Positions 2,816 to 28,297 of a stretch of DNA of 64,000 nucleotides are shown in pieces (positions within the stretch are counted from its first letter, which is position 1; every line of letters starts with the position of its first letter). The stretch spans positions 81,828-145,827 of the forward strand of contig CAUJCN010000001.1 in NCBI GenBank assembly GCA_963169855.1. Reading direction: 5' to 3'. Below the pieces are notes generated by a model that saw only the letters and a program-made list of their open reading frames with translations, was not told the DNA's origin and did no database searches. Made by a program: the position numbers and the translations under genes. The DNA comes from Patescibacteria group bacterium (lineage in GTDB: Bacteria; Patescibacteriota; Dojkabacteria; J137).

Positions 2816-2822
2816 TAAATAA

Positions 2823-3185
2823 TTAAGTGATCGGAAAGATTTCTTTCTCAATCGATACTCGTTGTTCAACAATCATCTCCATTACCTCTATAACTCTTAC
2901 TCCTTTGGTTTCCGCATACTTTGAAATCTTTAGAAATAGAAGAGGGTAGTAATCTTTTAACATATCTAACTTGATCATTTCAGGATCTCTTCCCTTTGCT
3001 AAGTAAGCTATCCCAGAAAATTTTGTTATTAAGGTATAGTCCGCATTATCCAGTTCTTGCTGAGTACAATAAGGTCTCATAGCCGAATAGATATTCCCAT
3101 CATTCTCGAATTTTCTATTTGGATCGTTATCCACATGTGCTCCTCTCATCATGTGTTCGTGTGTAATTCCTGCTCTTGATTCCAT
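2823..3185 (-). CDS. Hypothetical protein (N-terminal 'HEHMMRGAHVD' vaguely resembling the metal-binding C-terminal motif of M15 peptidases)
   Basis: Intact 120-aa ORF within the minus-strand locus. The motif match is weak. Confidence 0.35.
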   Translation of the reverse strand: MESRAGITHEHMMRGAHVDNDPNRKFENDGNIYSAMRPYCTQQELDNADYTLITKFSGIAYLAKGRDPEMIKLDMLKDYYPLLFLKISKYAETKGVRVIEVMEMIVEQRVSIEKEIFPIT

Positions 3186-3191
3186 AATATT

Positions 3192-4526: not shown

Positions 4527-4558
4527 ACTAGGACAATAATTTTTTATTATAGCAGAAT

Positions 4559-5149
4559 TTAAACAAGTAAAACTCCCACCATGAATGCCAAACAGGCCGC
4601 GAGACCTCCTATTAAAACTGTTTCCAGAACTGATCTTAGTGGACTTGATTTTAGAATGAAAGATTTTAAGTAACCTAACATCGATAGTGCGAATACAACA
4701 AGAATTGCAGAAAAAATCGCTTTTACATCGTGTTGTAGAGCTGAAAGGAAGTATGGAAGTAGTGGAATAACCCCGAAAATTGTAAATGATGTAAACGTTG
4801 CAATACCAGAAAGCAAAGGAGTTTTCTTCCGTTGCTGGTTACCAACTGTTTTCAAAATCATTTCTACATCATCAGTCGAGAATTTCTTTGAAAGTTCTTT
4901 CTTAACGTCACTAACATCTTGCGTAGATAGTTCCAGTTCTGCTCTTTGAGAAAGGTAGTTTCCAATACCCATAGAAAATGCATCCGCCAACAGATTTGCC
5001 ATTCCAAATAGAAGCACAACTCCAATTCCAAGAGGGATTGCTTCTGGAGAAGAGTTAGCACCAACAAAGCCAGAAACTATCGCAAAGGTAGTTATAATGC
5101 CATCGTTGCCACCGTAAACAATTTCTGAAAGGAATGTTTTGAGTATCAT
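4559..5149 (-). CDS. VIT1/CCC1-family (Fe/Mn) membrane transporter
   Basis: '[21 protein letters not shown]' matches the GxNDG signature of the VIT family. Hydrophobic C-terminal TM segments are present. Confidence 0.65.
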
Positions 5150-5158
5150 TATTAGGTA

Positions 5159-8100: not shown

Positions 8101-11100
8101 TTGAATTCTGTCCTGTCGCTTCGTTTTGTTGACCCCAAGACATTGAACCGGTGCCAGAAGCAGTTGTATCTAGACCAAATGCCGTTGAATAATCTCCAAC
8201 ATTTGCATCACCCCACTGAAATCCGTTTGCAGTACCAGCTCTAAATGCGGATCTTCCAGGTGCCCAATACATTCTAGTTGTGGAACTGAATACTGCTGGG
8301 ACAGGATCTCCACTTAGATTACCTTCAAAAAGAACGTTTGTTGGATCTCCGTTAGAGATTATATGGAGTTTCTCTTGAGGATCTGCAACACCAATTCCAA
8401 AGTTTCCAATTCCTGACCAGCCAATGCTGTTTCCTGCAAGTGGAACTTCTGTATCAAATAGTAAACTTGCGTTTGTAGCTTCTGGGCTACCCACAGCTCC
8501 ACCTAATCTTATTCTGTCCGCAACTGGGTCTACTTGCAAACCATTGTCTGCTAATGCAGAGATTGTGCTGCCTGTTATGTCTATACCATCTCCACCTACT
8601 AGACTTCCTCCTCCAAAACAAGAGAACCACGCCCCGTTGTTTTCTGAACACTGAAATGTGTTTGAAAGAGTATCAAAATACATGGACCCTGCACCAAAAG
8701 GTGAAACTGCTGGTGCAAATCCACCGTACAAGGTCATCTTTGCGTCCCAGCCTACCGAGAATGCATTATTTCTTGCAAAGTCACTCGTTCCATTACCTAT
8801 TATAAATGCCTGATCGGATTGATCAAAGGCAAGTGAGTTACCTGAAACTGTATTAAAACGACCAATTGTGGTCTGAGCAAATCCTTGTGATTCAGTACTT
8901 TCTCCAAATGCAACGGCTCTCTCTCCCGATGCAGTAGCTCCATCACCCATTGCAATAGATACAGTTCCACCAGCAGTTACTTGCGAACCCATTGCGATAG
9001 AAGAGAAGCCATTTGCTGTAGCTCCGTTACCAAAGGCTGTTGCAAAGTTTGCATTTGCTTGCACAACATTACCATACGCAAATGAACTATCTCCCATTGC
9101 CTGTGAATTGTTACCTCCAACAAAAGAAGCAGTACCAGATGAAATATTTTGCAAACCGAATGCTACTGACATTGTTCCTGATGCTTGCGCATTTTGTCCA
9201 AATGCAAAAGCTTCTCTATCAGATGCTGTTGATGTAAATCCACCTGCAAATGAATTCTGACCAGATGCGATAGTTCCTTCACCTAAAGCTATAGCTCCAT
9301 CACCTTGTGCTGAAGTCCCTACTCCTAGAGAGGTTGCGTATGATCCAAATGCACTAGTTGTATTACCAAAAGAAGTAGATCCAATTCCTGTTGCATTATT
9401 ATTGTTTCCAAATGCAGTTGCATAGTCTGCAGATACATCGTTGGAGAAGCCCCAAACTCCAGCCGAGCTTGCATTAAAATTAATATTATTCATATTTCCA
9501 GCACCAAAGTTTGTAGAACCCTGAATGTTGTTTCCTGAACCTCCTACTAGCGAATAAAATGCTGGAACAGTATTACTAGATCCCGATACAAGGGAAGCCT
9601 GACCTGTAACTTGATTAGCTTGTCCAAAAACTGCAGAATCGTCTGCACCGAAAATTTGATGACTTTGTCCACCAGCTACTATTCTTGCTCCTGCTGCCAT
9701 TTGATTAAATCCAAAAATGGCGCCATCATTCACTCCAATATTATTGTTATTAGATCCACCTAGAATAGTATTTACCCCAAATGGCATTAAAGTATTAGAA
9801 GATCCAAATACAATTGAATTCTGTCCCCCATTAGTATTCGTATTTCCAGTTGTTATAGAATCTGTACCAGTAATTGAATTACCTTGACCAATTCCTAAAG
9901 ACCTGTTTGAGCCTGTCATTGTGTTACCTTGACCTGAAAGTATAGAGTTAACAGATGTTTGACTTTGGTTTAAATTACCACCGACTAAAGTGCTGTCGCT
10001 ACCCATATCAATATTGTTCGATGAACCGTAAACTATAGAAGAGATACTTCCTGTTATATTGTCTGTTCCTGCAGCCACAGAGAATGGTCCGTTGGCTTGT
10101 GTATTATTTCCAAAAGACGTTGCACCGAATGATGTTGCCTGCGTATTTTGACCAAATGCTAATGAGTTATTTCCAGAAGCAGTATTACCTTGTCCAAATG
10201 AGGTTGAGTATTCTCCTTGTGCAGTAGTATTTTGACCAAATGCAGTTGCTCCTGTACCTGAAGAAATATTATTGTTTCCGAAAGCAGTACCATAAGAATT
10301 AACAACCTCATTACTAAAGCCCCATGTCGCAGCGTTTTCAGATCCCATCATTATTTGGTTTTGTTGGCCGGCTGCAAAATGTTGCAATCCGCTCACCTGA
10401 TTCATCATTCCACCAACAAGACTAAAGTTGGAGAAGTTTTGATTGGCTTGACCACCTGTAATCGACCCTTGATTTTGGACTTGATTTCCTTGTCCAAAAA
10501 CTGCGACATCGTTCGAAAAGTTAACTTGATTAAATTGTCCTCCAACAACCACTCTTTGACCACTTACGGTTTGTGTAACTCCAAAAACTGCTGAGTTTTC
10601 TGCATCTACATTATTGTTTCCCTGGCCCCCAACTATAGAATTGTTGGTGGTTGGTACAGTTGTGTTGTTTTGACCAAAAACAATCCCCCTTTGGCCGGTA
10701 CTTGTATTAGCTTCTCCTATTGTAAATGAAGTGGCACCACTTACTGTGTTACCAACTCCTGCTACTATTGCTGCAGATGCTCCATTAAGGTTATTGCTTT
10801 GCCCAAACAGTGCTGAGTTAGAAGAGGCTCCTATTGCAACATTTGTATTACCTCCTGCAATTGTATTTTCACTAGACATGTCTACTGCACTACTTTGACC
10901 AAACGCTATTGAATTTGTTCCAAAAGCAAAAGTTCCATTTCCAGCAGCAATCGAATTCATACCATTTGCTTGTGTATTCTGGCCAAATGCAGTAGCACCT
11001 TGATTAGTTGCTTGAGTATTAAAGCCGAATGCCGCAGAGTTGATTCCACTAGCTGTCGTATTAACTCCAAAAGCTGAAGCACCCGCAGCAGTCGCTGAAG

Positions 11101-14100
11101 TGCTCTGGCCAAAAGCAGAAGAATTTGCTCCAGAAGCTGTAGTATCTAATCCAAAAGCTGCTGAGTTATCTCCAACATTGAAGTTGTCCCACTGACCCAT
11201 TGTAGCGGTTCCAGCTCTAAATGCTCCTCTACCAGGAGCCCAGTACATTCTAGTTGTAGAAGAGAATACTGTAGGAACAGCCATTCCATTTAAAGTACCT
11301 TCAAATAATACGTTACTAGGATCTCCCGCGCTCATCACATGTAATTTTTCTTGTGGTGCTGCAACTCCAATTCCAAAATTTCCCTGACCTGACCACCCGA
11401 TGCTGGATCCTGCCAAAGGTACTTCTGTATTAAATAGTAATGATGCATTTGTAGCCTCCGGAGATCCTACTGCGCCTCCTAGTCTAACTCTATCGGTGGC
11501 TGCATCTACTTGTAAACCATTATCAGCTAAAACATTTAATATTGGATTTGTAAGAGTACCTGTGTCACTGAGACCATCTCCAGCTGTTATCGAAATTATT
11601 CCTGCAGATCCTGTAGATCCAATTACATGCCAATTAGCACCATCAGAAATTAAAGTTACAGCATTCATATCATCCAAAGCATATGCTCCGGAAAGACCAT
11701 CTATTGTTTCTAAGCCCATAGGATTCACTCCCGAAGTAGATCCAGATTCATTTTTTATTGTATAGATTCGTCCTGCTAACCCGCCTGCTGATGGTAAATT
11801 CGCGCTTACTGCTGGACCTGTCAACACTACTGTTTGATTTAGCTCATCTAAGTTAATGCTTCCACCAGAAGAGTCTTCGTAGTTTACAGAGAAACTTCCA
11901 TTTGTACTCAAAGTTGAATGTGGAGTAGTGTTATTAAATCCTACACCCAATCTATTGTTAAGAGTATCTACAGATATTACTGTTGCAGTATCATCCTCTT
12001 TTCTAACTTGGAAAGCATCTGTTCGATTTACGCTATTTGAAACAAATATTGGTCTTGAATTTCCAACTGTTGTTACTCCAATCTGATAATCAGTAACCCC
12101 AATTCCTGGATCAGAGAACATTAATGCAATTGGATCGATTACTCCAGTTACTGTTAAATCTCCAGTTACTTGCAATCCCTTTGTACCAGTTAAACTTCCA
12201 CTATCAAAGGTTGGTAAGAACCCATTATTCGTAATTGTTGTATTGTGTAGTAGAGTACCACCCCATTCGATAAAGTCTCCAGAGAAACTCAAACCATTTT
12301 GAATCTGAGCATCTATTATTGGATCAACTCCAGTTCCAGAATTTACTAAACCTAACCCTGCTGTAACTGAATTAACTCCACCAGCTCCAAAACAATCAAA
12401 ATATGCTGCACCGTTTTCAGAACACTGGAAACCTCCTAATGCAGAGTTGAAGTACATTCTCCCTTCTCCTAGAACAGATAATGCTGGGTCTAACGTAACA
12501 CCCATCATAGAAAGACCTGAGTTACCAGTCAATCCAGTTGTACCTTGATCAATGCTAAGCAACGCTGTAGGGGCAGTAGAAAGTATTCCAACTCTTCCAT
12601 CTCCCATAACTGTCACCAACGGAGTTGGAATTCCAAATAAATCGTTCTCTATTTGGAAGACTTCGTCACTTGCACTAAGATTTTGCTTTGTTGCGAAATA
12701 AAATGCCTGTTCTACTCCTTGTCCAATGTTTCTATCAGAAAGAAATGCCATCCCACCAAAATTACCTGCAGTATTTGTTCCAAAGTTTGTTGTGTGTATA
12801 GTTGCTGAACCCGGCGATGCAAACCCTTGATTTAAAGAAGTATAATTTGCACCTGCTCCCAAAGTTCCTGTTGTTGATGTGATATTTAGACTTCCAGGGC
12901 CAAGTTCTAAGGAAGCCCATCTATTAGTTAGTGTTCCTAAATCAAATGTATTATCTACCTCAGGATCGAATCCTGTTGCAGTTATTCTTGCAATACTTAC
13001 AGCATTCCTAATAAATGTTTGATCAAAATTATCTAAAGTACCTAAAACACCGCTTGTACCAAATGAATTTCCATCCTGACAGAAAAAATCACCTGTAGGA
13101 TCACACGGAAGATTAGCTAAACTTGAGTTTACAGGATTACCACCTGCATCAAATCCAAGTAAGTTAGAAATCACCCCAACTGGAACTCCCACATTTGAAG
13201 AAACGCCGTTAACATTAGATGTAAATCCACCAGCAAGATTCAGGGAGAATACATTACTGTTTATTATAGTAGCAGTGTCCGATACACCATTAACTGTTGA
13301 AGTCATTGTGTTACCTAATGAGTCGAGAACATTTGTCGTTGCTCCAGATAGAAATGTACTCGCGTCCTTACTTAATAAGTTTCCTGCCGCATCAGTATAA
13401 AGAATATTAAGTACAGCCGGTGCATCATCTCTTGTATTTGGATAGCTACTCATTAAAATATTTCCATTGCCGAAAATTGTGAACCTATCAACACCACCAT
13501 TGTTTGCTGTAAAAATAGAAGTACCTATTGCAGTCTCGTTCCTTACTAACAATCCATTAGCACCTACGCCAGGTGTTCCGTTGTGGAATGTAGCAGTATA
13601 CCCTGGTGTGATTGGACCACCGATCTGCCAGAAAATTCCTACAGGATGTTGACCAACTCCACCTTGATCAGTAATACTACCTGATGCATTCGAAAGTAAA
13701 GTTGCGGGATTGTTGCTACCTATTCCAACATTTCCTCCAGCCATAACTCTCAATCTTTCTAGACCATTTGTTTCCAAAACCAAATCGTTGTTATCATTTG
13801 TTCCTAACGTACCCGTTGTACCAAAAAGGTTACCATCCTGACAGAAGAATGAACTAGTAGCAACGCAAGGAAGAGTAGAAAGATCAACAGTGTTGCTGGT
13901 TACACCATTAACAACACTCTCTAGATTTGAACCTACAAGATTTAAAACATTTGTATTTATTATGTCATCGAAACTTACAACACCATTCACTGTGCTTGTT
14001 GCAACATTCCCTGCTGTTGTGAATACATTAGTAGTATTTCCAGTTAAAATTGAAGCAATTGTTTCATTAACTGCTACTCCACCTGCATCAAAACCCAGAA

Positions 14101-15757
14101 CATTAACAATAGTTCCTCCTGCAATTGGTTGATTATCACTAACTCCGTTAACATCTGTCGTGAAGCCTGTTGCAAGATCCAAGTTAAAGTTAACTGAGTT
14201 AATAATATTTGCTGTATCTGAAATTCCGTTTACAGTTGAAGTCATTACATTACCTAGTGAGTCTAAAACATTAGTAGTTGCTCCACTTAGTACAGTAGCA
14301 ACTGACTGATTCGCTGGATTACCTCCTGCGTCATAACCTAGAAGATTAACAATTGTTCCTGCAGGAGTTGCTACAGTATCTGCCACGCCATTCACTGTTG
14401 AAGTGATTCCTCCAGCTTGAGTCCAAGTTAATGTATTAGTTGTATTTGCTGCCAAAATGCTACCAATTGTTTGATTTACACCATTTCCACCAGCATCGAA
14501 TCCAAACACATCAGTGATTGTTCCTGCTGGTATTGCCTGTGAAGATGCTATTCCATTTACTGTTGAAGTAAATCCTGTTGCTAAATCTACAGTTAAAACA
14601 TTTGAATTTATTATGTCGTCAAAACTTACAACACCATTTACTGTGCTTGTTGCAACATTTCCTGCTGTTGTAAAAACATTAGTAGTTGCTCCAGTTAAAA
14701 TTGAAGAAACTGTTTGATATGCTGGATTACCCAATGTATCGAAACCTAGTAGTTCAGTCAAAGTTCCTGCAGCTAAAGCTTCATTAGCAGCAACGCCATT
14801 TACTGTTGATGTAAATCCTGTAGTTCTATCAAGATTAAAAAGGTTTGTTAAGGGTAGAGCAGAGGTGTCAGTACAAGCCCAACTTACTCCGTTAAACATG
14901 TATACCTGATCTAAGGCACAGGCAGTTAGGCCATATGTGACTGTGTTTCCAGCTGTTGCAACTGAAATCGGACCAGTTGAAGCAAGGGTTATTGAAGGAC
15001 CAGTTTCACCATTAACATCTGTAATTCCTGCGCCTACAGCTGCTGGTAAACAAACAAATGCTGTTCCGTTCCAAGAAAGTCTTTCTGTTGGTAGACAGGT
15101 AGGAGCATTTACAGAAACTGTCCCTGTAGTTGTAATTGGGCCTCCAGTCAGACCGTTTCCAGTATTTATAAGTGTAACTCCTGTAGGTAAAGATACCGAG
15201 TTTCCGTTAGAAATCGATAGAATATTCCCAGCCAAACCTAATGTTTGGCTATCATTATCAACTCCACTCCCAGATCCTACTAAATCAGGTAAACAAACAA
15301 ATGCTGTTCCTGTCCATGATAACTTTTCATTGAAAGTACAGGCTGGAGAATCCACAGAAAATTGATTTGTTGTTAATTCTAGACCTTCACCTGATGTATA
15401 CGTATTGGATCCTCCTGTTCCTTCTGTGGAACATTCCCAAGTATTAGTAACTCCACTCCACCTTAATATTTCGTTAGTAGAACATACTTTGTTAAAACTA
15501 ACTGTATAACCGTTATTAACCTGATTAACTGTAATTAAATCTCCTCCTTGAACAGGTGATGAATTTCCGCCTGGATTTACTGTGGTATTACCAGTTGAAA
15601 ATGCTCCCCATCCTAAGAGAAGTATAAGGATAATAATTAAGACAAGGGTTACAACATACCAATTTCGTAGGAGTTTAAAGCGGTCGAGAGATACAAGTTC
15701 ATAAACACTGAACTTCTGCTTAGTAGGTTTTGTTACAGAATCATCTGAATGGTCCAT
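5159..15757 (-). CDS. Giant (3532 aa) type-II membrane-anchored surface fibre protein. It has Cys-pair modules, about 213-aa tandem modules, two roughly 1-kaa mega-repeats carrying YadA-head-like 14-residue 'NSTAFG' repeats, and a C-terminal phage tail-fibre intramolecular chaperone (peptidase S74-like) domain followed by a coiled coil and a terminal β domain.
   Basis: Single intact ORF. N-terminal 'WYVVTLVLIIILILLLGWGAF' TM anchor. Repeated 'xSTAFGxxTxAxGxx' 14-mers. C-terminal 'YKSNISDLNNGLDTVMGLRPVQF...LGFIAEEVNVVDPRLA...GVNYELMSAIL' matches the endosialidase chaperone (S74) signature, and a heptad-rich coiled coil follows. Confidence 0.85.
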   Translation of the reverse strand: MDHSDDSVTKPTKQKFSVYELVSLDRFKLLRNWYVVTLVLIIILILLLGWGAFSTGNTTVNPGGNSSPVQGGDLITVNQVNNGYTVSFNKVCSTNEILRWSGVTNTWECSTEGTGGSNTYTSGEGLELTTNQFSVDSPACTFNEKLSWTGTAFVCLPDLVGSGSGVDNDSQTLGLAGNILSISNGNSVSLPTGVTLINTGNGLTGGPITTTGTVSVNAPTCLPTERLSWNGTAFVCLPAAVGAGITDVNGETGPSITLASTGPISVATAGNTVTYGLTACALDQVYMFNGVSWACTDTSALPLTNLFNLDRTTGFTSTVNGVAANEALAAGTLTELLGFDTLGNPAYQTVSSILTGATTNVFTTAGNVATSTVNGVVSFDDIINSNVLTVDLATGFTSTVNGIASSQAIPAGTITDVFGFDAGGNGVNQTIGSILAANTTNTLTWTQAGGITSTVNGVADTVATPAGTIVNLLGYDAGGNPANQSVATVLSGATTNVLDSLGNVMTSTVNGISDTANIINSVNFNLDLATGFTTDVNGVSDNQPIAGGTIVNVLGFDAGGVAVNETIASILTGNTTNVFTTAGNVATSTVNGVVSFDDIINTNVLNLVGSNLESVVNGVTSNTVDLSTLPCVATSSFFCQDGNLFGTTGTLGTNDNNDLVLETNGLERLRVMAGGNVGIGSNNPATLLSNASGSITDQGGVGQHPVGIFWQIGGPITPGYTATFHNGTPGVGANGLLVRNETAIGTSIFTANNGGVDRFTIFGNGNILMSSYPNTRDDAPAVLNILYTDAAGNLLSKDASTFLSGATTNVLDSLGNTMTSTVNGVSDTATIINSNVFSLNLAGGFTSNVNGVSSNVGVPVGVISNLLGFDAGGNPVNSSLANLPCDPTGDFFCQDGNSFGTSGVLGTLDNFDQTFIRNAVSIARITATGFDPEVDNTFDLGTLTNRWASLELGPGSLNITSTTGTLGAGANYTSLNQGFASPGSATIHTTNFGTNTAGNFGGMAFLSDRNIGQGVEQAFYFATKQNLSASDEVFQIENDLFGIPTPLVTVMGDGRVGILSTAPTALLSIDQGTTGLTGNSGLSMMGVTLDPALSVLGEGRMYFNSALGGFQCSENGAAYFDCFGAGGVNSVTAGLGLVNSGTGVDPIIDAQIQNGLSFSGDFIEWGGTLLHNTTITNNGFLPTFDSGSLTGTKGLQVTGDLTVTGVIDPIALMFSDPGIGVTDYQIGVTTVGNSRPIFVSNSVNRTDAFQVRKEDDTATVISVDTLNNRLGVGFNNTTPHSTLSTNGSFSVNYEDSSGGSINLDELNQTVVLTGPAVSANLPSAGGLAGRIYTIKNESGSTSGVNPMGLETIDGLSGAYALDDMNAVTLISDGANWHVIGSTGSAGIISITAGDGLSDTGTLTNPILNVLADNGLQVDAATDRVRLGGAVGSPEATNASLLFNTEVPLAGSSIGWSGQGNFGIGVAAPQEKLHVMSAGDPSNVLFEGTLNGMAVPTVFSSTTRMYWAPGRGAFRAGTATMGQWDNFNVGDNSAAFGLDTTASGANSSAFGQSTSATAAGASAFGVNTTASGINSAAFGFNTQATNQGATAFGQNTQANGMNSIAAGNGTFAFGTNSIAFGQSSAVDMSSENTIAGGNTNVAIGASSNSALFGQSNNLNGASAAIVAGVGNTVSGATSFTIGEANTSTGQRGIVFGQNNTTVPTTNNSIVGGQGNNNVDAENSAVFGVTQTVSGQRVVVGGQFNQVNFSNDVAVFGQGNQVQNQGSITGGQANQNFSNFSLVGGMMNQVSGLQHFAAGQQNQIMMGSENAATWGFSNEVVNSYGTAFGNNNISSGTGATAFGQNTTAQGEYSTSFGQGNTASGNNSLAFGQNTQATSFGATSFGNNTQANGPFSVAAGTDNITGSISSIVYGSSNNIDMGSDSTLVGGNLNQSQTSVNSILSGQGNTMTGSNRSLGIGQGNSITGTDSITTGNTNTNGGQNSIVFGSSNTLMPFGVNTILGGSNNNNIGVNDGAIFGFNQMAAGARIVAGGQSHQIFGADDSAVFGQANQVTGQASLVSGSSNTVPAFYSLVGGSGNNIQGSTNFGAGNMNNINFNASSAGVWGFSNDVSADYATAFGNNNNATGIGSTSFGNTTSAFGSYATSLGVGTSAQGDGAIALGEGTIASGQNSFAGGFTSTASDREAFAFGQNAQASGTMSVAFGLQNISSGTASFVGGNNSQAMGDSSFAYGNVVQANANFATAFGNGATANGFSSIAMGSQVTAGGTVSIAMGDGATASGERAVAFGESTESQGFAQTTIGRFNTVSGNSLAFDQSDQAFIIGNGTSDFARNNAFSVGWDAKMTLYGGFAPAVSPFGAGSMYFDTLSNTFQCSENNGAWFSCFGGGSLVGGDGIDITGSTISALADNGLQVDPVADRIRLGGAVGSPEATNASLLFDTEVPLAGNSIGWSGIGNFGIGVADPQEKLHIISNGDPTNVLFEGNLSGDPVPAVFSSTTRMYWAPGRSAFRAGTANGFQWGDANVGDYSTAFGLDTTASGTGSMSWGQQNEATGQNSTAWGTGSFAQDINATAWGNTTVASGPGATSFGTQTQAQATNSIAFGFGTVANGDQSTSWGEDTLSSGISATAFGTQTQALGDNGTAFGQNSIVGFGSTNSTAFGTATEAGTSAPGVENALAFGNQTQAQDDQATAFGNQTSAQGLNSTAFGFSTQALNDNSTAFGDDTLAQGIGSTAFGFTTQALGEYATAFGRISNVGVNSLASTAFGTDTSAGVMTMNVANALAFGNQTQAEANQATAFGNQSQAYGINSTAFGLLTQSQGDQSTAWGENSVAQGTNSTAFGFTSEALGDTSTAFGRFTTVGSQSFASTAWGTSTLAGFFTANVDNATAFGFDTRAEADQATSFGYQTSASGDNSLAFGRGTQSMAEQSTAFGFQTVAQGTNSTAFGNGAQAIGSNNTAFGNLTQTRGLNSMAWGDQTNVDPGAVFENGTAFGANTLANASQATAFGLGNVADGQNSTTWGESNVASGVNSTVFGDENVVAPSATLSTAWGSQNIVTGMGNTVWGLQNVGTGPGATVFGIGNITGSGTDTTLSSFVSDTYVQTIMGSYAIRNGANASQTYTEAITDNEQIFIIGNGEDDLTRSTAFYVTWNGDVFFERELRANGNAGNIGDVLLSGGAGGAANWTDSEFTFWMLDGNQTDGLGGNYTLGTTVNNGIDFTTNLVARMSLNANGELDVSQLTNGGASTSYVCTDASGVIVVQAGVCNVSSERYKSNISDLNNGLDTVMGLRPVQFTKNSDGSRSLGFIAEEVNVVDPRLAFSRDGRIEGVNYELMSAILTDAVQTQEGRLQNVEVQVNENEGRVDAVEASLNTLSAVPTDLQGIRSTILDLQNTNVSIQQTINNIQSSLTIFQTHEARLVDVETRLASLEGTVSLLQGGSASIDLSNLSVGNLIASGNVRVLGKLNVSEDTAGVATIETGLTFVTVTFSTPFNTVPVVTASPIGRRVDYYVGNITETSFDIILDAALEVPVEFNWISLGR

Positions 15758-15911
15758 TCAACCAAAGTAAAACTAGCAATAGTGCAATTATTATATTTAG
15801 CAATATGATCGTAAATTTCCAGCCTTTTGATTCTTTCTTTTCAACATCAATTTGGACTTTGTCCGATGTTTTTTTGTCCGAATCCTTTTCTACAAGTGTA
15901 ATTTCCTGCAC
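15741..15911 (-). CDS. Small single-TM peptide (56 aa, GTG start), paralogue of the peptides upstream of the other two giant genes. It overlaps the giant-gene start.
   Basis: Translation '(M)QEITLVEKDSDKKTSDKVQIDVEKKESKGWKFTIILLNIIIALLLVLLWLNGPFR*' read from the minus strand. The C-terminal hydrophobic helix plus 'LNG' parallels P1/P2, which end in 'IING*'/'LING*'. The TGA stop lies 14 nt inside the 3532-aa ORF. No in-frame ATG is present, so the start is uncertain. Confidence 0.4.
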   Translation of the reverse strand: MQEITLVEKDSDKKTSDKVQIDVEKKESKGWKFTIILLNIIIALLLVLLWLNGPFR

Positions 15912-15966
15912 ATTTGAGCGTTAACTCTATACAGCATATACAAATTTTAAAACGAAATCAATAGTT

Positions 15967-16398
15967 TTATTCTGCGTCTCTGATTGCCGATAAAACCTTT
16001 GAGCTAGGGCTTAAATCTTCTATAAATAAGACTTTACTAAGATTTATGTCCATTCGATTTGAAGGTCCGTGAAGTTCGTCTCCCAACTTAATCAAATTGA
16101 TATCTGATGATGTAGATTCCGACTGATTAGAAAGATAGTAAACGTTTTTTAGAACTATGAAGTTTAAATCTGAAGAACCTTTATCTATTTTGCCGAAATA
16201 CACCTGCCCATTTTCTAGGAAAACTGCTTGGTATTCTGATTCGATTTTTAAATCTAAATTTTGGGAGCTATCTCTGTTTAAAAATAAAATTACTGAAAGT
16301 AAAATTGCTACAACACTAAGTCCTATTGCAATAACAGCTTTACTTTGGTCGACTCTCACTTCCTTTTTAATTTCAGTTTTTGAATTTAACGACAACAT
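15967..16398 (-). CDS. Hypothetical single-pass membrane protein (143 aa)
   Basis: An N-terminal charged segment is followed by the TM helix 'AVIAIGLSVVAILLSVILFL'. The ORF lies between giant genes. Confidence 0.5.
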   Translation of the reverse strand: MLSLNSKTEIKKEVRVDQSKAVIAIGLSVVAILLSVILFLNRDSSQNLDLKIESEYQAVFLENGQVYFGKIDKGSSDLNFIVLKNVYYLSNQSESTSSDINLIKLGDELHGPSNRMDINLSKVLFIEDLSPSSKVLSAIRDAE

Positions 16399-16442
16399 TT
16401 GGGTTTATTAACTAAGTTCAGTTTACCAACAAATTCCTTAGT

Positions 16443-17123
16443 TTAAAACATGGTAAATGGAGAATAGAGAGAGAACACTAAACTATCGTCTTCAGGATCT
16501 TGCGATACTTTAAATAACGGATTAGCTACTATAGAAGTCATTTGATTTGTGATGTTCCAAAACTTTTCCAACTCTTCTCGTTTCAAAACACCTACATTTA
16601 CTCTAACATGCTGTGATCTGGGTAAATCCACTGATGATGAATGTCTGTCCGCAGGGTTGCAAGAATTAAAGTATATATACAAAAGTTTTTTGAGAATTTC
16701 ACTTATTTGAATAGGTATATCTTCAAAAAGATATTGAGATTTATCAATTCCATAGAAGACAGATTTTTTTGTACCTCTTGGATTAAAAGGTTCTGGTAGT
16801 ACAAATAAAAAAGGTATGCATATCTCATCGATTTCAAATTCTATAACGCATACTCTAATTGACCTCATCTGACCCTCTATGCTTATCTGAACCGTAGGGA
16901 CGAAATAAGAAAGATAATCATATTCATAAAATAATTTTTGGATAAAATCAGAAGGAAGGCCATCTTCGCTAAAAACAGACTGATCCTTCAGTTGAATATA
17001 GATAGTAGCTTTTGTTCTGTCAATTTCTAGCTTCCCCAAAGAATTTTCATGCGTGAATCTTACTCCTTTTGGATCAGTACTCGGCAGAATAAATCGATTA
17101 TAAGTTGTTTCTTCAGTTCCCAT
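16443..17123 (-). CDS. Hypothetical protein (226 aa)
   Basis: Intact ORF on the same strand as the fibre locus. No recognisable motif. Confidence 0.5.
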   Translation of the reverse strand: MGTEETTYNRFILPSTDPKGVRFTHENSLGKLEIDRTKATIYIQLKDQSVFSEDGLPSDFIQKLFYEYDYLSYFVPTVQISIEGQMRSIRVCVIEFEIDEICIPFLFVLPEPFNPRGTKKSVFYGIDKSQYLFEDIPIQISEILKKLLYIYFNSCNPADRHSSSVDLPRSQHVRVNVGVLKREELEKFWNITNQMTSIVANPLFKVSQDPEDDSLVFSLYSPFTMF

Positions 17124-17165
17124 GTCGGTAGATTATATTACACCAATCCCCATTTACGCCATGAA

Positions 17166-17197
17166 AAACCCACCTGTGCCGAAGCTTTGGTGGGTTT
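17166..17197 (-). terminator. Rho-independent terminator (possibly bidirectional) after ORF 17217..17951
   Basis: A 9-bp stem aaacccacc/ggtgggttt with a 14-nt loop. On the minus-strand RNA it is followed by UUUUUCAU. Confidence 0.45.
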
Positions 17198-17216
17198 AAC
17201 ATTTTTATTCAACAAA

Positions 17217-17951
17217 TTAGTTGATACTAGTAGAATAACTTCCGCTAGATACAATTGCATTAGTTGATGGTCTGTAGATAATAATCAAAGACTTGCTTGC
17301 ATATGTACCAACAACATCTCCAGTTTGTAGATTTGCATAGAATGCTGCAGATCCGCTACTTTGTCTGAACAAATCAGCATCTGTTACCAATGAAACTTGA
17401 GGAACTTCGTCTTCATCTTGAGCAATTAATCCAGCTTCTTTTGACTTAGCAACAAACTGGTTTAAGATCGCCTGTTGAGATTTCTGAAGTAGAGTAGTTG
17501 GATTATCTCCATCATAAATAACTCTGTCTTCTCCTCCTCTATAAATTACCAATTTTGTTGAGTAAGCTAAAACATGGTCTCCATTCTGAGCATCTTTGTA
17601 AACTACTGCATTTGCTTCACTCTGTGATTTCAAATCTTCCACATTTGGTAAACTTCCATCTCCAATCACTGCCATTACAGGAATTTCTGTAGGTGGAACT
17701 TGCGTTAAACTTCCAACTCTATTTATTACTTTGACAGCATTAAACTGACTAAGTAAATTAATTGGGTTCACAATTACGAATAATGTTACAAGCTGTAATA
17801 CTACAATCGCAGCAAGTAAAAATTTCATATTGTATAAACTTTTTAAAATAGATAAACCCCCTCTTGATGAACCACCTGCAGAACTAGTAGTTGGCCTAGG
17901 TGCAGCGGGAGTAGACTTATCTAAGTTTAGTTTGACTGATCTTCCATTCAT
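17217..17951 (-). CDS. Hypothetical membrane-anchored/secreted protein (244 aa). An alternative start at M42 would give a signal peptide.
   Basis: An Ala/Pro/Ser-rich N-terminus is followed by 'MKFLLAAIVVLQLVTLFVIV' (TM or signal peptide). The ORF lies directly downstream of the 1760-aa giant gene. Confidence 0.5.
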   Translation of the reverse strand: MNGRSVKLNLDKSTPAAPRPTTSSAGGSSRGGLSILKSLYNMKFLLAAIVVLQLVTLFVIVNPINLLSQFNAVKVINRVGSLTQVPPTEIPVMAVIGDGSLPNVEDLKSQSEANAVVYKDAQNGDHVLAYSTKLVIYRGGEDRVIYDGDNPTTLLQKSQQAILNQFVAKSKEAGLIAQDEDEVPQVSLVTDADLFRQSSGSAAFYANLQTGDVVGTYASKSLIIIYRPSTNAIVSSGSYSTSIN

Positions 17952-17992
17952 ACGATTAAATTAATATTCATAGTTTCCTATGAGTTGGATTA

Positions 17993-20900
17993 CTATAAAG
18001 CTATCCAGTTAAATAAAATATCCGATGTTGATACTGGTTGTATTACAATATCAAAACCATTTTGATTTACATTTTCTATTCCATAGTATACAGCATTTAT
18101 TCCAACAGGTGTAATAGTTACTGATGGAATTTTTGTTAATGGAGTAGAGAAGTTTACACGAATTGAATTGTTGCCTCCCGCAATAGTAGCATTTCCACTT
18201 AGTGCCACCGGAATAGATTGAATCAGGTTTTCTAAATCGGAAATCCTTTGGTTTATTGCGGTTATATCAAATGAATTTGTTGCGAGTGAATCAATATCAT
18301 TTTTTATATTTGTTAGTGATGTATTCAAATCAGATGCCATAGTTTGTAACTCAGAAACATCAGTTCCGTCTAATTGTGTTTTTAGTTGATCGATCTCAGC
18401 TTGAATTCTAATATTATCTTCATTTAATTCTTGAATTGCTTTAACCAAGTAAGGGGTAAATCCGTTTACTTTAATTTGAAGATATCCGTCAGCTCCTACT
18501 TTAACTAAATCAGGTACAACCGATTGAACTTCTTGAGCAATAAATCCTAACTTCAATTCGTTCGAAGGATCGTTGTTCATATAGTAATTTCGCACCTGCA
18601 ATTGCGATATTGTGTCTAAAGCCGAAGTAGAGTAGTCAGAAATAGTATTTTTCAATCTCGAGTCCGAAGTACATCCAAATGAACCAAAAGCACCATCTGG
18701 TGCCACGGTACAAGTACCCGAACTATTTTCAAAAGTAGCTACTGTGGATAAAGCAGGGTCTAGGAAATCTCCAACATGTAATTGACTTGTAGGCGACACA
18801 TTATGTATACCAACGTTCCCATTTATTCCGTTAACAAACACATGTACAGTATTATTTGTACCCAAAGTTAATGGATATGTAGCCATGGTGTTTACATTAA
18901 ACGACTCAGTTCCTCCAAGCGATCCGTTTAAAGTAGAGTTTGCTTGAATAAAACCAATTCCTGCATTGTTATTTGAGAACATCATCGATGAGGCCGCGTT
19001 TAGTCCTGAATTGTTGTTTCTAAATTCTACAAACCCTTGCGCATCTACATCTTGCTCAACTACAAACATATAGTTTGGTCCTGAAGTTCCTATTCCTACA
19101 TTTCCATTATTTGCTATTCGCATTCTTTCTTGTCCATTTGTGAAGAATACTGTAGAAAACGCAGCAGAACCAAGTGTTAAGCTGCCTGCAGAATCGATAG
19201 TTATGTCGTTATTAGTAGTGATCAGCGATGCGTAATCTCGTGCGTTTAAAAACAAGTTTCCTGAAAGTGTGTTTACTGAAAGATCTCCGTTAGAATTAAG
19301 TTCGTTATTTATTGTGCCCGTAAAGTCTAACATGCTACGGCCAACGTCTGTCCACAAATCAAAGCCAGCCGATGTGGCATTGTCGTGAATATTTAGAGCG
19401 ACTACAGGTCCACCAGTTACAGTTTGAATTCTCACGGCTCCTGAATCTGCTAAAATTGTTCTTCCAACACCTGGTCCTCCAAAATCGTATGAATCATCCA
19501 AAGTTCCACCGCCAATTCCTAACCATCCATTCGTTGAAAAATCCTGTGTCTTCACATACAAATGTTCTCTATTTGTTACACCATCAATTCTAAAAAACAA
19601 ACTTCCGCTATTTGCCAAATGAACACCCTCTGGGTCTCCAATTCCAACTAGCTGATCTATGGTATTGGCACCTGTTCCAGATAACCTGAGTGTTCCTGGT
19701 CCAGATGTATTTGTAACATTCATTATTGAAGAACCTGCACTAGATCCTATTACAAATGTATTGACACCTTGTTGTCTGAATATCGTACCAGTATCGTTAG
19801 AAAGCAATATCTCATCGGTTACTCCTTGGTATGTAAGGTTAGCAAAGTTTGTATTAGGCATATCTAGAAATCTTATTCCACCACCGTTTGGTGAAGTAAT
19901 TAATTCAAAACCCGAGCCATTAGTATTGTACCCTTGAATAATGTTTTGATTACTCACAATATTTTGAGTTGACACAAGTAGAGCTTCATTTACACCATTA
20001 ATTTCTACAGCTCCAGAATCAACAGTTATTATTCTACCTGCACCAGGTCCACCAAAATCGTATGCATCATCTAAAGTTCCTCCTGCTCCAGCACCGAGAG
20101 CCACCCACCCATTAACACTTGCATCTGTTGTTTTTACGTATAGTTGTTGACTGCCTCCAACTCCATCCATTCGAAAGAATACACTTCCGCTATTCGCAAG
20201 GATGCCTCCTTCTGGATCTCCCGTACCAATTAACTGATCTACAAAAGCAGCACCTCCTGTAGTTCCTAATCTTAAAATCGTAGGATAAAATGGCCCATTA
20301 CTATTAATTGTTAGAACAGGATCGTTCGCCAAGCCAGCCGTTGACTGTATTATTGTACTATTGCCAGTCATTCTAAAAACGTTATTAGCCTGATTTGTTA
20401 TAGAGAAGTTATCAAAAGAACCATCGTATACGGTTCGAGCGACGTTAGCTCCAAAACTATCAGAGAACCATAGACCTCCGCCGTTTACGTAGGTTTGCAA
20501 AGCAAATCCGGATCCATTTGGGTTTGAAGCTGTAAAAATGTCTTGATTACTAGCATTGTTTTGCGTTGTTGCGTGTATAGCATTTGATGTTGCATTAAGC
20601 TCAACAACTCCCGAATCTACATCAATAATTCTCCCTGCCCCTGCGCCTCCAAAATCGTATGCATCATCCAGAGTTCCTCCAGATCCTCCTGAACCCAACG
20701 CTACCCAACCGGTATTGAAGCCATTATTTGTAGTTTTTACATACAGTTGTTCGTTCGCCCCACCATCAGTTCGCATGTAAATACTTCCTTGGTAACCAAA
20801 TAGAACATTTTCTGGTGTACCAGCACCAGAATAGATCTCAGTTGTACCACCATTATTATTGAAGTTCATAAAGGAATTTTGAGTTTGACCAGCATTTGTA

Positions 20901-23275
20901 ATCTGTAGTATTCCGTCATGTTGTAAAGAGTTGCTTAAATACTGAAGGTTGTTTCCTTGATTAAACATTGTCCAACCAGCACCAGTTATACCGTTCCTTA
21001 ACGAGAAATTATCCACGATTCCTTGGAAATACATATCGTAATAATTTGCTGCACCGTTGAACAATTCAGAGGCAAATGTCAATCTGACTCCATCAGAATC
21101 ATCTCTTATTAAGAACGAATTATTTGTACCTCCTGTTTGTGTATAGAAGAGAGTATCTGAAAATGCTCCTGCAGCGTTTAAGAATCCCGGGCCAGAAGAA
21201 GTAAGTCTCAAACCTTGCACATCTACTTGTAAGTCGTTTCCAGCAGCTGGGCCACCGAAGTTATATGCATCTTGCAGAGTGCCACCACCACCTCCTCCAC
21301 CTCCTAGCTGTACCCAACCAGTGTTAGTTCCTGCTCCAGTTTCTTTAACCCACATCGGCATAGCACCAGATCCAGAAACATCGTAGTAAACACTACCCAT
21401 AAATCCGTCCACAATTCCATTCGGATCTCCATTGCCGACATTGTGAGTCATTGATCCAAAACTATTTCCCATCGAAACAACTCCATAAGGATTGGTTACA
21501 TCATTGTTTTGAATGAATACGGAACCAGTTGTAGATGTTGTAGCAGATGCGCTAATGCCAGTCTGAGCTGTTGAGTAAAAGTTAAGTGACGATGTTGGTC
21601 CTGAAGCAGTAAGACTAACACTAAACGGATCAAAAGATAATGTTCCGAAATCTGAACCTCCTCCGTCTGAAAGTCCTATATTAAAGAATTCGTTTCCTGG
21701 AGAGTCTGCAAAGATTTGATATCCGAATGTTGTAGAAGTGAAATTATTCACATCTACTGAATAAATCATTCCAGTTCCTGTAAATGGACCAAAATCCAGT
21801 CTACCCATAGATACGCCAGCCCCTGCTGTGTTAATTCCAACCCCATCTCCAACAACACTGAATGCTGGGTCATATCCAAAAGGAACAGCGCCTATTGAAT
21901 CTATTAATTCTACGGAACCTGAATCTGTAAATATTGTTCGTCCAGCACCTGGGCCTCCAAAATCGTATGCATCATCAAGAGTTCCACCAGATCCACCTCC
22001 TGCTCCAAGAGCTACCCAACCAGTGTTACTACCATCAGTTGTTTTAACGTACAATTGCTGAGAACCACCGACTCCATCAGTTCTAAAGAAAACGCTTCCA
22101 CTATCTGCATTCTCTACACCTTCCGGATCACCAGTACCAACCAATTGTGTAATTCCACTTCCAGTAGCTGGGTCTAATGATAATACTCTTGATGGATTAG
22201 CCATATTTTGATTTTGTATCAAAACAGCACCTGCGTTTGACTGAGCCTGACCTCTAATTCTTACAGTATCGTTTACAGAAGTTATGAATAAATCCTGATC
22301 TGATTGAATATCCATACCACTTCCGTTTTCAGATTGTATCTGCATTAATCCATTCATCATGAGAATGTTTCCATATCTTGTAGCCCCATCAGAAAATCCT
22401 AATTGGTAAAATTCAGCACCTGGGAATGCAGAGAAAGAATTAAATCCGTAATATCCGTTTGTGAAATTGTTTACATCATCGGCAAACAGTAAGATACTTC
22501 CATCATCACCACCTTGAACATCCATTTTTGCCATCGCAATACCGTTCAGGCTTGAATTGTTTACTGTACCATCTCCGACAATTACAAAAGAAGGATCGTA
22601 TCCTGCAAATCCTCCTGTCTTAACATCGGTAAACTGCACAGCTCCTGCATCTGTAGTAACAATTCTACCTGCTCCTGGACCACCAAAGTCATATGCATCA
22701 TCCAATGTTCCACCTCCGGCAACAGAAACACATGATAATACTGTACCATTCCACGAAAGAGTTTCTCCTAATGCACAGGTAGGAGCATTCAAAGAAATTA
22801 CTCCAGTAGTTGTAATCGTTCCGCCATTCAATCCGTTACCAGCCGTAATACTTGTAATTCCAGAAGAGCCTCCAACTGGTAGGTTTACAGTATTACCGTT
22901 TGTAATTCCTAAAGTATTACCTAATATGTAAAGAGTTTGCTGATCGTCATCATTCGTCGGGTTAGTTGGTGTAGTGGTTCCAGTTACTTCGTCTACACAA
23001 ACAAAGTTCGAACCATCCCATTGAAGTTTATCTGTCGCTTGGTTACAAACGGGAGCACTTAGGGATATAGTTCCTGTAGTTGTAATCGTACCTCCACTTA
23101 ACCCAGCACCTGTTTGAATTCTAATATTTGTACCTCCACTGTTTGATAGATCACCGATTTGATTTGTTAAGTTAGAACGAAGAGAACCTAATACTAATAC
23201 AATTATTAGCGTGATTATTCCAAAACCTAAAATGAACCATTTATTAATACCTATTTGGTTTTCGACATTATCCAT
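17993..23275 (-). CDS. Giant (1760 aa) type-II membrane-anchored surface fibre protein with six 'GGTLDDAYDFGGPGAGR'-initiated modules and a C-terminal peptidase S74-like intramolecular chaperone domain
   Basis: N-terminal 'WFILGFGIITLIIVLVLGSL' TM helix. Two Cys-pair modules ('SAPVCNQATDKLQWDGSNFVCVD'). Six repeats each end in '...GS(V/L)FFR(T/M)DG..QLYVKT.D...GWV.LG'. C-terminal 'TSDSRLKNTISDY...LKLGFIAQEVQSVVPDLV' chaperone signature followed by a coiled coil and a β domain. Confidence 0.85.
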   Translation of the reverse strand: MDNVENQIGINKWFILGFGIITLIIVLVLGSLRSNLTNQIGDLSNSGGTNIRIQTGAGLSGGTITTTGTISLSAPVCNQATDKLQWDGSNFVCVDEVTGTTTPTNPTNDDDQQTLYILGNTLGITNGNTVNLPVGGSSGITSITAGNGLNGGTITTTGVISLNAPTCALGETLSWNGTVLSCVSVAGGGTLDDAYDFGGPGAGRIVTTDAGAVQFTDVKTGGFAGYDPSFVIVGDGTVNNSSLNGIAMAKMDVQGGDDGSILLFADDVNNFTNGYYGFNSFSAFPGAEFYQLGFSDGATRYGNILMMNGLMQIQSENGSGMDIQSDQDLFITSVNDTVRIRGQAQSNAGAVLIQNQNMANPSRVLSLDPATGSGITQLVGTGDPEGVENADSGSVFFRTDGVGGSQQLYVKTTDGSNTGWVALGAGGGSGGTLDDAYDFGGPGAGRTIFTDSGSVELIDSIGAVPFGYDPAFSVVGDGVGINTAGAGVSMGRLDFGPFTGTGMIYSVDVNNFTSTTFGYQIFADSPGNEFFNIGLSDGGGSDFGTLSFDPFSVSLTASGPTSSLNFYSTAQTGISASATTSTTGSVFIQNNDVTNPYGVVSMGNSFGSMTHNVGNGDPNGIVDGFMGSVYYDVSGSGAMPMWVKETGAGTNTGWVQLGGGGGGGGTLQDAYNFGGPAAGNDLQVDVQGLRLTSSGPGFLNAAGAFSDTLFYTQTGGTNNSFLIRDDSDGVRLTFASELFNGAANYYDMYFQGIVDNFSLRNGITGAGWTMFNQGNNLQYLSNSLQHDGILQITNAGQTQNSFMNFNNNGGTTEIYSGAGTPENVLFGYQGSIYMRTDGGANEQLYVKTTNNGFNTGWVALGSGGSGGTLDDAYDFGGAGAGRIIDVDSGVVELNATSNAIHATTQNNASNQDIFTASNPNGSGFALQTYVNGGGLWFSDSFGANVARTVYDGSFDNFSITNQANNVFRMTGNSTIIQSTAGLANDPVLTINSNGPFYPTILRLGTTGGAAFVDQLIGTGDPEGGILANSGSVFFRMDGVGGSQQLYVKTTDASVNGWVALGAGAGGTLDDAYDFGGPGAGRIITVDSGAVEINGVNEALLVSTQNIVSNQNIIQGYNTNGSGFELITSPNGGGIRFLDMPNTNFANLTYQGVTDEILLSNDTGTIFRQQGVNTFVIGSSAGSSIMNVTNTSGPGTLRLSGTGANTIDQLVGIGDPEGVHLANSGSLFFRIDGVTNREHLYVKTQDFSTNGWLGIGGGTLDDSYDFGGPGVGRTILADSGAVRIQTVTGGPVVALNIHDNATSAGFDLWTDVGRSMLDFTGTINNELNSNGDLSVNTLSGNLFLNARDYASLITTNNDITIDSAGSLTLGSAAFSTVFFTNGQERMRIANNGNVGIGTSGPNYMFVVEQDVDAQGFVEFRNNNSGLNAASSMMFSNNNAGIGFIQANSTLNGSLGGTESFNVNTMATYPLTLGTNNTVHVFVNGINGNVGIHNVSPTSQLHVGDFLDPALSTVATFENSSGTCTVAPDGAFGSFGCTSDSRLKNTISDYSTSALDTISQLQVRNYYMNNDPSNELKLGFIAQEVQSVVPDLVKVGADGYLQIKVNGFTPYLVKAIQELNEDNIRIQAEIDQLKTQLDGTDVSELQTMASDLNTSLTNIKNDIDSLATNSFDITAINQRISDLENLIQSIPVALSGNATIAGGNNSIRVNFSTPLTKIPSVTITPVGINAVYYGIENVNQNGFDIVIQPVSTSDILFNWIAL

Positions 23276-23396
23276 TAATTAGAAACAGTAATAAGGCCAA
23301 AGCAGAAATGATAAGAATCAATGTAATTCCAACATTTACAATTGAGTAGTTCTTAGACTCTACATCGTATTGCTCATCTTGTTTTTTTGAGGCCAT
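23268..23396 (-). CDS. Small single-TM peptide P2 (42 aa), translationally coupled to the 1760-aa giant gene
   Basis: Minus-strand reading 'MASKKQDEQYDVESKNYSIVNVGITLILIISALALLLFLING*'. The stop codon TAA sits inside AATGGATAATG, overlapping the giant-gene ATG out of frame. It is below the ORF-track length cut-off. Confidence 0.5.
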   Translation of the reverse strand: MASKKQDEQYDVESKNYSIVNVGITLILIISALALLLFLING

Positions 23397-23472
23397 GATA
23401 AATAAAAATAAGTTAGTGCTATTACAATATAGAGAAAATAAAGGGACATTTCAAGAGATATTTGGGAGAATT

Positions 23473-27387: not shown

Positions 27388-27517
27388 TAATTATAAACAA
27401 TATTAGTAGTATTGCCGAAATGACTAAAACCAGAATTACAGCAGTATTTATTACTGAGAAATTTGAAGACTCATCATAGATTGGAGTAGCTTCTTTTGCA
27501 GTTTTTTGTAGTGCCAT
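27380..27517 (-). CDS. Small single-TM peptide P1 (45 aa), translationally coupled to the 1304-aa giant gene
   Basis: Minus-strand reading 'MALQKTAKEATPIYDESSNFSVINTAVILVLVISAILLILFIING*'. TAA overlaps the ATGGATAA start of the giant gene. It is a paralogue of P2. Confidence 0.5.
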   Translation of the reverse strand: MALQKTAKEATPIYDESSNFSVINTAVILVLVISAILLILFIING

Positions 27518-27539
27518 AGTTAAGTAGTAGTGCATATAT

Positions 27540-27568
27540 ACTATAGTAATTTTTTATCCATCTTGCAA
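27540..27568 (-). promoter_or_regulatory. σ70-like promoter candidate for the P1/giant-fibre transcription unit
   Basis: On the minus strand: TTGCAA, a 17-nt spacer, then TATAGT, about 25 nt upstream of the P1 ATG. Confidence 0.35.
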
Positions 27569-27620
27569 GTGTGTAAAAAATATTCTGTGATAATATCGAC
27601 TGTATAGTTAATAAAACTCT

Positions 27621-28142: not shown

Positions 28143-28297
28143 CTAAGTGTCCGTATTCCTATGCCTAGTAATTCGAATACATTATTTATACGTAATTATC
28201 CACAGTAATTTGTTGCTAGAGACATGGTGCGAAATTACTCAGAAGAAATTTAGTTAATATAATCCAACACAAAGTGTGCGAATGCAGGACAGTCTTA

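Follow-up and report, generated by a model that had tools for sequence, protein, structure and literature searches.

Small membrane proteins encoded beside large partners

KdpF (kdpFABC) and CydX (cydABX) are tiny one-helix subunits encoded in the operon of the large membrane protein that they bind. In Salmonella, a diderm, the gene for SadB, an inner-membrane lipoprotein of ∼200 amino acids (aa) with a periplasmic domain, lies upstream of that for SadA, and SadB promotes display of the SadA fiber. ElaB and YqjD of Escherichia coli are C-tail-anchored proteins of ∼100 aa that are not tied to a partner gene. Here we analyze P3, a 56-aa reading frame that overlaps the 5′ end of G3, the gene for a 3532-aa giant surface protein, in a 64,000-nucleotide (nt) stretch of the genome of a Patescibacteria group bacterium (contig CAUJCN010000001.1, positions 81,828 to 145,827; this whole stretch is "the window", and coordinates are given within it unless a contig is named). 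P3 is very probably a real gene that starts at a GTG codon. On balance we favor the view that it is a functional tail-anchored micropeptide gene and the first cistron of a promoter-micropeptide-giant unit that occurs three times, with an inferred role in coupling to, or as a partner of, the giant protein.

P3 is like KdpF and CydX in being very small, hydrophobic and co-encoded with a large protein, whose gene such subunits often overlap, and KdpF is likewise a first cistron. The sequences are unrelated, however, and the partners of KdpF and CydX are a transporter and an oxidase rather than a giant fiber with one anchor helix; in the case of P3 the binding is a prediction. SadB, like P3, is a small protein encoded directly upstream of a very long fiber with YadA-head repeats, but P3 should have essentially no extracytoplasmic part, and the autotransporter SadA is anchored C-terminally, whereas G3 has an N-terminal transmembrane (TM) anchor and a Peptidase_S74 domain. 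ElaB and YqjD share with P3 a cytoplasmic N-terminal part, a single TM helix at the extreme C-terminus and, as predicted for P3, post-translational insertion; they are longer, have no partner gene and are unrelated in sequence. Leader peptides and upstream open reading frames (ORFs) resemble P3 in being short 5′ frames that overlap the start of a main gene, but P3 has no alternative RNA structures or codon runs and its peptide sequence is under selection. P3 differs from holins in its C-terminus (only 2–5 residues), its chromosomal context and the lack of a lysis cassette. Literature searches on Dojkabacteria giant proteins and on micropeptide-adhesin coupling turned up no such module, and P3 and the two similar peptides P1 and P2 (below) probably form an undescribed, lineage-restricted family of small membrane proteins, each overlapping a large partner gene.

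The P3 reading frame

The frame and its junction with the giant gene are as follows.

15741..15911, minus strand: P3, gene of a 56-aa small membrane peptide, from GTG (15911-15909) to the TGA stop (15743-15741)
5159..15757, minus strand: G3, 3532-aa giant surface protein, ATG at 15757
15741..15757, minus strand: P3/G3 stop/start overlap, 17 nt, AAUGGACCAUUCAGAUGA, within a 31-nt block that is identical in the window and in the related species described below

The P3 translation in the ORF listing is MQEITLVEKDSDKKTSDKVQIDVEKKESKGWKFTIILLNIIIALLLVLLWLNGPFR. It contains no in-frame ATG, and its sole methionine is the start residue. An in-frame TAA (15923-15921) lies three codons 5′ of the GTG (TAA CGC TCA AAT GTG). 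The initial annotation had described a minus-strand frame of 56 aa with a hydrophobic helix, no in-frame ATG and a TGA that lies 14 nt inside the giant ORF, and the ORF listing, the hydropathy and the sequence agree with it on each point; 14 bases of the giant ORF come before the TGA, which makes an overlap of 17 nt with the stop codon included. It had also placed a TAA immediately upstream of the GTG, and although that codon is in frame it is three codons away.

An open frame of 56 codons has a chance probability of ∼0.018 per frame at the local GC content, so the ORF by itself is weak evidence of a gene; P3 stands beyond chance because it is conserved in an ortholog. GTG is a minority start codon in this genome. 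The gene callers skipped P3 in the window's own assemblies, evidently because of its GTG start, and the protein collection lacks it as well.

Conservation of P3 and selection on its sequence

A profile of the three peptides was searched against 5.8 billion proteins, and it matched P1 itself and one new protein, P0003. This 56-aa protein from a related species is 79% identical to P3 in amino acid sequence over the full length, and in its ATG form it is called as a gene in NCBI, JGI, ENA and Logan data. The gene order on the contigs that carry it (L018-L023) is that of the window: a 1750-aa giant, genes of 246, 234, 143 and 56 aa, and a 3696-aa giant. In the DNA alignment of the two loci (alignment A4), the ATG of the ortholog aligns exactly with the GTG of the window, both species have an in-frame stop three codons before that start, and there is no insertion or deletion in 171 nt. 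The C-terminal extension Pro-Phe-Arg (PFR) and the 17-nt overlap are identical in P3 and its ortholog, and the 31-nt junction block (alignment columns 206-236), invariant between the two species, is the most conserved stretch of the P3 region. The initial annotation had proposed such an alignment as a check and regarded the lack of a frame at the orthologous locus as grounds for rejection; the frame is kept.

The 38 substitutions between P3 and its ortholog are distributed 10/5/23 over codon positions 1, 2 and 3. By the Nei-Gojobori method the proportion of nonsynonymous differences (pN) is 0.15 and that of synonymous differences (pS) is 0.66, which gives a nonsynonymous to synonymous rate ratio (dN/dS) of 0.11–0.13; 47% of the changes are nonsynonymous versus 80% expected under neutrality (binomial p = 1.2e-5). 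For comparison, pN is 0.16 for the giant G2, 0.24 for the 143-aa gene and 0.48 for a 226-aa gene. Nucleotide identity between the species is 77% in P3, 67% in the flanking intergenic DNA and 64% in the 143-aa gene. Five independent assemblies, drawn from two run series, agree on every base of P3, which rules out a sequencing or assembly frameshift, the other ground on which the initial annotation would have abandoned the frame.

That annotation had offered two outcomes, either a 56-aa peptide with a GTG start or a copy in decay. The former is borne out by the ortholog, with its ATG at the same codon and its equal length, and by purifying selection. If P3 were instead a nonfunctional, decaying copy of a P1/P2 gene, a frame that merely happens to be open in the 5′ leader of the giant, this would fit with the lack of an ATG in the window and the use of a minority start codon, the disappearance from P3 of the original TAA found at the P1 and P2 junctions, the omission of P3 by gene callers in its own assemblies and its weak similarity to P1 and P2. 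Decay does not fit with the preserved start position and length, the absence of indels and the mostly synonymous change, nor with a pN that equals that of the giants and the conservation of the PFR extension and the 17-nt overlap themselves; moreover, gene callers do call the ATG ortholog. We therefore consider decay most improbable.

P1, P2 and the paralogous giants

Two further pairs of a small peptide and a giant lie upstream of P3 on the same strand, and a promoter-like site precedes each of the three peptides.

17993..23275, minus strand: G2, paralogous giant of 1760 aa, N-terminally anchored by a TM helix, with Peptidase_S74
23473..27387, minus strand: G1, paralogous giant of 1304 aa, N-terminally anchored by a TM helix, with a C-terminal module like that of G2 and G3
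23268..23396, minus strand: P2, paralogous peptide of 42 aa that overlaps G2 by 8 nt at AATGGATAA
27380..27517, minus strand: P1, 45-aa paralogous peptide, with an 8-nt overlap with G1 at AATGGATAA
15933..15961, minus strand: candidate sigma-70-type promoter of a P3-G3 operon, TTGATT (15961-15956), 17-nt spacer, TATGCT (15938-15933)
23426..23454, minus strand: promoter-like site of P2, TTGAAA-17-TATATT, 10/12 consensus matches, conserved in the ortholog
27540..27568, minus strand: promoter-like site of P1, TTGCAA-17-TATAGT, 9/12 consensus matches

The N-termini of G1, G2 and G3 align: each has Met-Asp, a short cytoplasmic tail, one TM helix and repeats of the form GGxITTTGxISLNAPxC. G3 consists, in order, of an N-terminal cytoplasmic tail of ∼34 aa, one TM anchor, YadA-head repeats (13 stretches), Peptidase_S74, a coiled coil and a C-terminal domain, and Peptidase_S74 also lies near the C-terminus of G2. 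The C-terminal module of the giants (5159..5900, 17993..18800 and 23473..24300, minus strand) is made up of Peptidase_S74, a coiled coil and a domain of ∼100 aa that ends in FNW; the S74 domain is thus not at the very C-terminus, unlike that of phage tailspikes.

The mechanical P1 ORF is 27380..27535 (51 aa); the 45-aa form begins at the Met that aligns with the start of P2, and gene callers have called P1 in both forms. P2 has an ortholog at 1765..1893 of related-species contig L018, which is also 42 aa long, starts with ATG, has the same 8-nt overlap and shows an excess of synonymous changes. The 5′ leader of P2 (TAGCAC.AACTTATTTTTATTTA; window 23397..23425, minus strand, and L018 ∼1735..1764) is better conserved than the P2 coding sequence, which suggests a constrained AU-rich initiation region. 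The P3 promoter candidate matches the consensus at 8/12 positions, under the scan threshold, and is conserved in the ortholog (alignment A4, columns 15-50).

The homology of P1 and P2 is clear in that 0 of 5000 shuffles reach their score. In shuffles with tail and helix kept apart, P3 gives p = 0.002–0.03, and when a P3 profile was run against 6233 small frames, P2 was the best non-self match (E = 0.012) and P1 the next (E = 0.087). Each of the three peptides adjoins the 5′ end of one of the three paralogous giants behind its own promoter-like site, and all have in common the junction T(T/G)AATGGA, in which the Asn-Gly of the peptide overlaps the Met-Asp of the giant (alignment A2). P3 differs from P1 and P2 in its length (56 versus 45 and 42 aa), its GTG start, the additional PFR and the wider overlap (17 versus 8 nt). 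The initial annotation had called P3 a third, divergent family member with an Asn-Gly ("LNG") motif like that of P1 and P2. The shared AATGGA junction is present, with P3 running on into PFR, and position, architecture and junction all agree with membership, to which the sequence statistics add only marginal support. It is likely that P3 belongs to the same family as P1 and P2, mainly on the basis of position and architecture.

The simplest history is duplication of the whole promoter-peptide-giant module. P1 and P2 end with a stop codon at AAUGGAUAA that the P3 lineage had already lost when the two species diverged (GGATAA to GGACCA...TGA); through this loss P3 gained PFR, and its overlap grew from 8 to 17 nt. 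In the simplest history, the change from ATG to GTG at the P3 start happened later, in the species of the window.

Architecture and topology of the peptides

P3 has a hydrophilic N-terminal tail (residues 1-32), a TM helix (33-51) and the C-terminal residues NGPFR. The best 19-residue Kyte-Doolittle means are 2.98 for P3, 3.04 for P2 and 3.34 for P1, and in 5/5 peptides (P1–P3 and the orthologs) the maximum, 2.9–3.3, lies in the last 19 residues. AlphaFold2 models P3 as one helix (5-52); the predicted local distance difference test score is ∼90 over the TM part, and the model is confident there only. In P1–P3 lysines flank the helix on its N-terminal side and just 2–5 residues lie beyond it, so from sequence the topology of P3 should be N-in, of the tail-anchored type, with a single pass. 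Since the helix would still be in the ribosome tunnel at termination, co-translational targeting of the mRNA to the membrane is not favored. The predicted cytoplasmic tails of P3 (15816..15911, minus strand) and G3 (15655..15757, minus strand) are 32 and 34 aa long, versus 24 and 21 aa in P1 and P2 and 16 and 13 aa in G1 and G2.

No model in Pfam, PHROGs or NCBIfam reaches its cut-off for P1–P3, and the subthreshold matches are driven by hydrophobic composition. P3 scores 18.8 bits (gathering cut-off 26.8) against Pfam DUF2116 (PF09889) over its hydrophobic stretch, and P2 matches NF045849 (Mbov_0395 pilin-like conjugal transfer protein) with E = 2.8e-4 and 20.5 bits (cut-off 40), a model to which neither P1 nor P3 gave a match. 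The latter hit, together with the single TM helix and a length of ∼50 aa, is what might be expected if P3 were an independent membrane-active protein, similar to a holin, a type I toxin or a pilin, whose position beside a fiber gene is incidental. This is very improbable, given three copies that are each locked by an overlap to a paralogous giant, the lack of lysin, phage or conjugation genes nearby, the absence of both a PHROG match and the charged C-terminal tail of holins, and database matches that all remain under their cut-offs.

Proposed relationship between micropeptide and giant

A stop codon a few nucleotides past a downstream AUG is the classical geometry of termination-reinitiation. 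The stop/start overlaps of peptide and giant are conserved between the species at the P3 and P2 loci, and translational coupling of P3 and G3 is plausible from this arrangement. A ribosome that terminates 5 nt (P1, P2) or 14 nt (P3) past the AUG of the giant could re-initiate there, and the giant would then be translated in step with its micropeptide. The N-terminus of the micropeptide would face the cytoplasm and its helix would span the membrane, where it might pack on the signal-anchor helix at the N-terminus of its own giant, which is presumably trimeric, and so help to insert or stabilize that anchor.

The G3 tail has a conserved motif, YELVSLDR.K.LRNW. The two species show hardly any difference in the G3 anchor (LRNWYVVTL.L.IILILLLGWG) or in the motif that precedes it, which is unusual for a generic anchor. 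This near-invariance and the greater length of the tails of both P3 and G3 favor a helix-helix partner role. That P3 is a paralog-specific membrane partner of the anchor of its giant is nonetheless a tentative proposal, to which we give somewhat less than even weight. We think it unlikely that every N-anchored giant of the lineage belongs to a fixed module that duplicates as a unit, in which the micropeptide would be an obligatory, paralog-specific "socket", made by termination-reinitiation, that inserts or holds a trimeric fiber in the membrane of a wall-poor episymbiont.

Fusion of peptide and giant by programmed frameshifting was rejected: in P3 a stop in the frame of the giant lies directly before its ATG (TGA ATG), at P1 and P2 such a stop lies two codons before the ATG, no slippery site is present, and the giant has its own anchor.

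The small ORF could also matter only as an act of translation, serving as a "launcher" or leader that brings ribosomes to the start of the giant or controls that start, with a peptide that has no function. All three modules keep the stop/start overlap, as do both species; leaders are short, Shine-Dalgarno sites are lacking, and the junction is the most conserved stretch, all of which would fit such a role. The selection on the amino acids of P3, and likewise of P2, argues against a pure launcher, however, and a launcher has no need of the hydrophilic tail and strongly hydrophobic helix that 5/5 peptides keep; in addition, the RNA has neither an alternative nor a start-sequestering structure, regulatory codon runs are absent, and other genes of this genome start without such ORFs. 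We judge a launcher with a functionless peptide to be quite unlikely.

Several observations weigh against the reading of P3 as a functional micropeptide that is coupled to, or a partner of, its giant. A profile of P1 and P2 scores P3 at just E = 0.93, so the sequence link between them is marginal, and the terminal Asn-Gly is dictated by the Met-Asp start of the giant and is no independent evidence of homology. Shine-Dalgarno sites are almost absent from the genome and short gene overlaps are common in it, so that the P3/G3 overlap is nothing out of the ordinary and coupling is no demonstrable requirement. No start-occluding RNA structure was found at five junctions, where the fold z-scores were −0.5 to +1.95 versus shuffles (regulatory codon runs are likewise absent from the P3 sequence). 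The partner role is pure inference, and no small TM ORF lies upstream of the two giants seen in more distant Dojkabacteria (L030, 1437 aa; L033, 3381 aa), which means that the peptide is not generally needed for such fibers. Finally, an ORF on the opposite strand covers P3.

15730..15924, plus strand: antisense ORF over P3, 64 aa, TTG start, open in both species

The dN/dS of this frame, 0.145, is near the value of the sense frame, and the selection test cannot separate P3 from an antisense frame that shares its wobble positions, so the antisense frame is rejected on context only. Were it the conserved element, with P3 merely its shadow, its openness across the region in both species and its low dN/dS would be explained. 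These statistics are not independent of P3, however, and the antisense dN/dS resembles that of P3 because third-codon positions are common to the two frames. The antisense ORF opposes a 25-kb run of minus-strand genes, its start falls inside the giant gene, and it has no hydrophobic segment (Kyte-Doolittle mean 1.19). In the window the antisense frame of P2 is interrupted by a stop, and across P1 and P2 there is no antisense ORF that reaches 20 aa. A start codon that is conserved and closely preceded by a stop exists in the sense frame alone. We give almost no credence to an antisense gene here, and the 64-aa ORF is probably a shadow of P3.

For now the result is chiefly a corrected annotation, together with the loss of a stop codon and a change from ATG to GTG in a gene that still works: a non-ATG ORF of fewer than 60 codons that gene callers overlooked is a real gene under selection, and it probably belongs to a micropeptide family whose three paralogs are tied one-to-one to giant Peptidase_S74/YadA-like surface fibers in an uncultured bacterium. 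P3 is so far an example of a missed non-ATG micropeptide and of module duplication with giant fiber genes rather than of a new mechanism. These episymbionts probably use such fibers as host-attachment organelles. Should the peptide be needed for anchoring or expression of the fiber, it offers a handle on how minimal cells insert and hold proteins of several thousand residues, and if the socket proposal is true, the peptides are a new class of micropeptide, dedicated to helping giant surface proteins.

Distribution of the module

When 1.84 billion cluster representatives were searched exhaustively by HMMER with a four-peptide profile, the sole matches were the family itself and one repeat protein, and viral contigs searched with the giant N-terminus and with the peptides gave no match. 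The alignment of the N-termini of the giants, when used in genome and metagenome scans, recovered distant proteins that share the GGxITTTG...NAPxC repeat (L006-L017) but no ortholog, and in the 5.8-billion protein set it gave five irrelevant matches. The sole GTDB match of the repeat is in a Saccharibacteria metagenome-assembled genome (MAG).

With the 244-aa neighbor (17217..17951) as a synteny anchor, loci of more distant Dojkabacteria were located (L030-L037), and in these the synteny with anchored giants is lost. The giant at L030 (4553..8866) shares with G2 only the C-terminal module of S74, coiled coil and FNW domain (28% identity), and its N-terminus is a signal-peptide-like sequence. 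As far as seen, the 5′ module of micropeptide and Met-Asp...TM anchor is confined to one clade with two species-level lineages.

Genome context and neighboring genes

The window is part of a cellular bacterial chromosome of the candidate phyla radiation and not of a phage. It encodes methionyl-tRNA synthetase (MetRS), cysteinyl-tRNA synthetase (CysRS), EF-G, BipA, Mfd, an AddA-type helicase-nuclease, RNase J, a HemN-like protein, VIT1 and tRNA-Arg. The initial annotation had spoken of a "fibre gene"; the giant gene is there, but the phage-like connotation of the term is misleading in such a context. The chromosome is probably Dojkabacteria-related: its MetRS is 46% identical to that of a Candidatus Dojkabacteria bacterium MAG, and the 244-aa neighbor has 48 homologs, of which those named in NCBI are from "Candidatus Dojkabacteria bacterium" MAGs.

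The 226-aa gene at 16443..17123 (minus strand), to which the pN of 0.48 above belongs, has no family match in Pfam, PHROGs or NCBIfam. Its product is only 27% identical in amino acid sequence to its counterpart at L018 8026..8730, whereas its neighbors are 68–88% identical. In the related species, L022 has a 228-aa gene in place of the 246-aa gene of L018, and both contigs carry an identical P3 ortholog; the called length of the giant downstream of that ortholog also differs among the contigs. These differences in L022 and L023 hint at strain-level rearrangement or at assembly breaks in the fiber cluster.

A TATAAT-like box lies 10–25 nt before the start of many genes in the window (1..64000), a placement that implies very short leaders or leaderless mRNAs. 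MetRS (34117..35598, minus strand) aligns with a Dojkabacteria MetRS only from Met10 (MNKFY...), and its mechanical TTG start is thus probably wrong; true non-ATG starts should therefore be rarer in this genome than the raw ORF list suggests.

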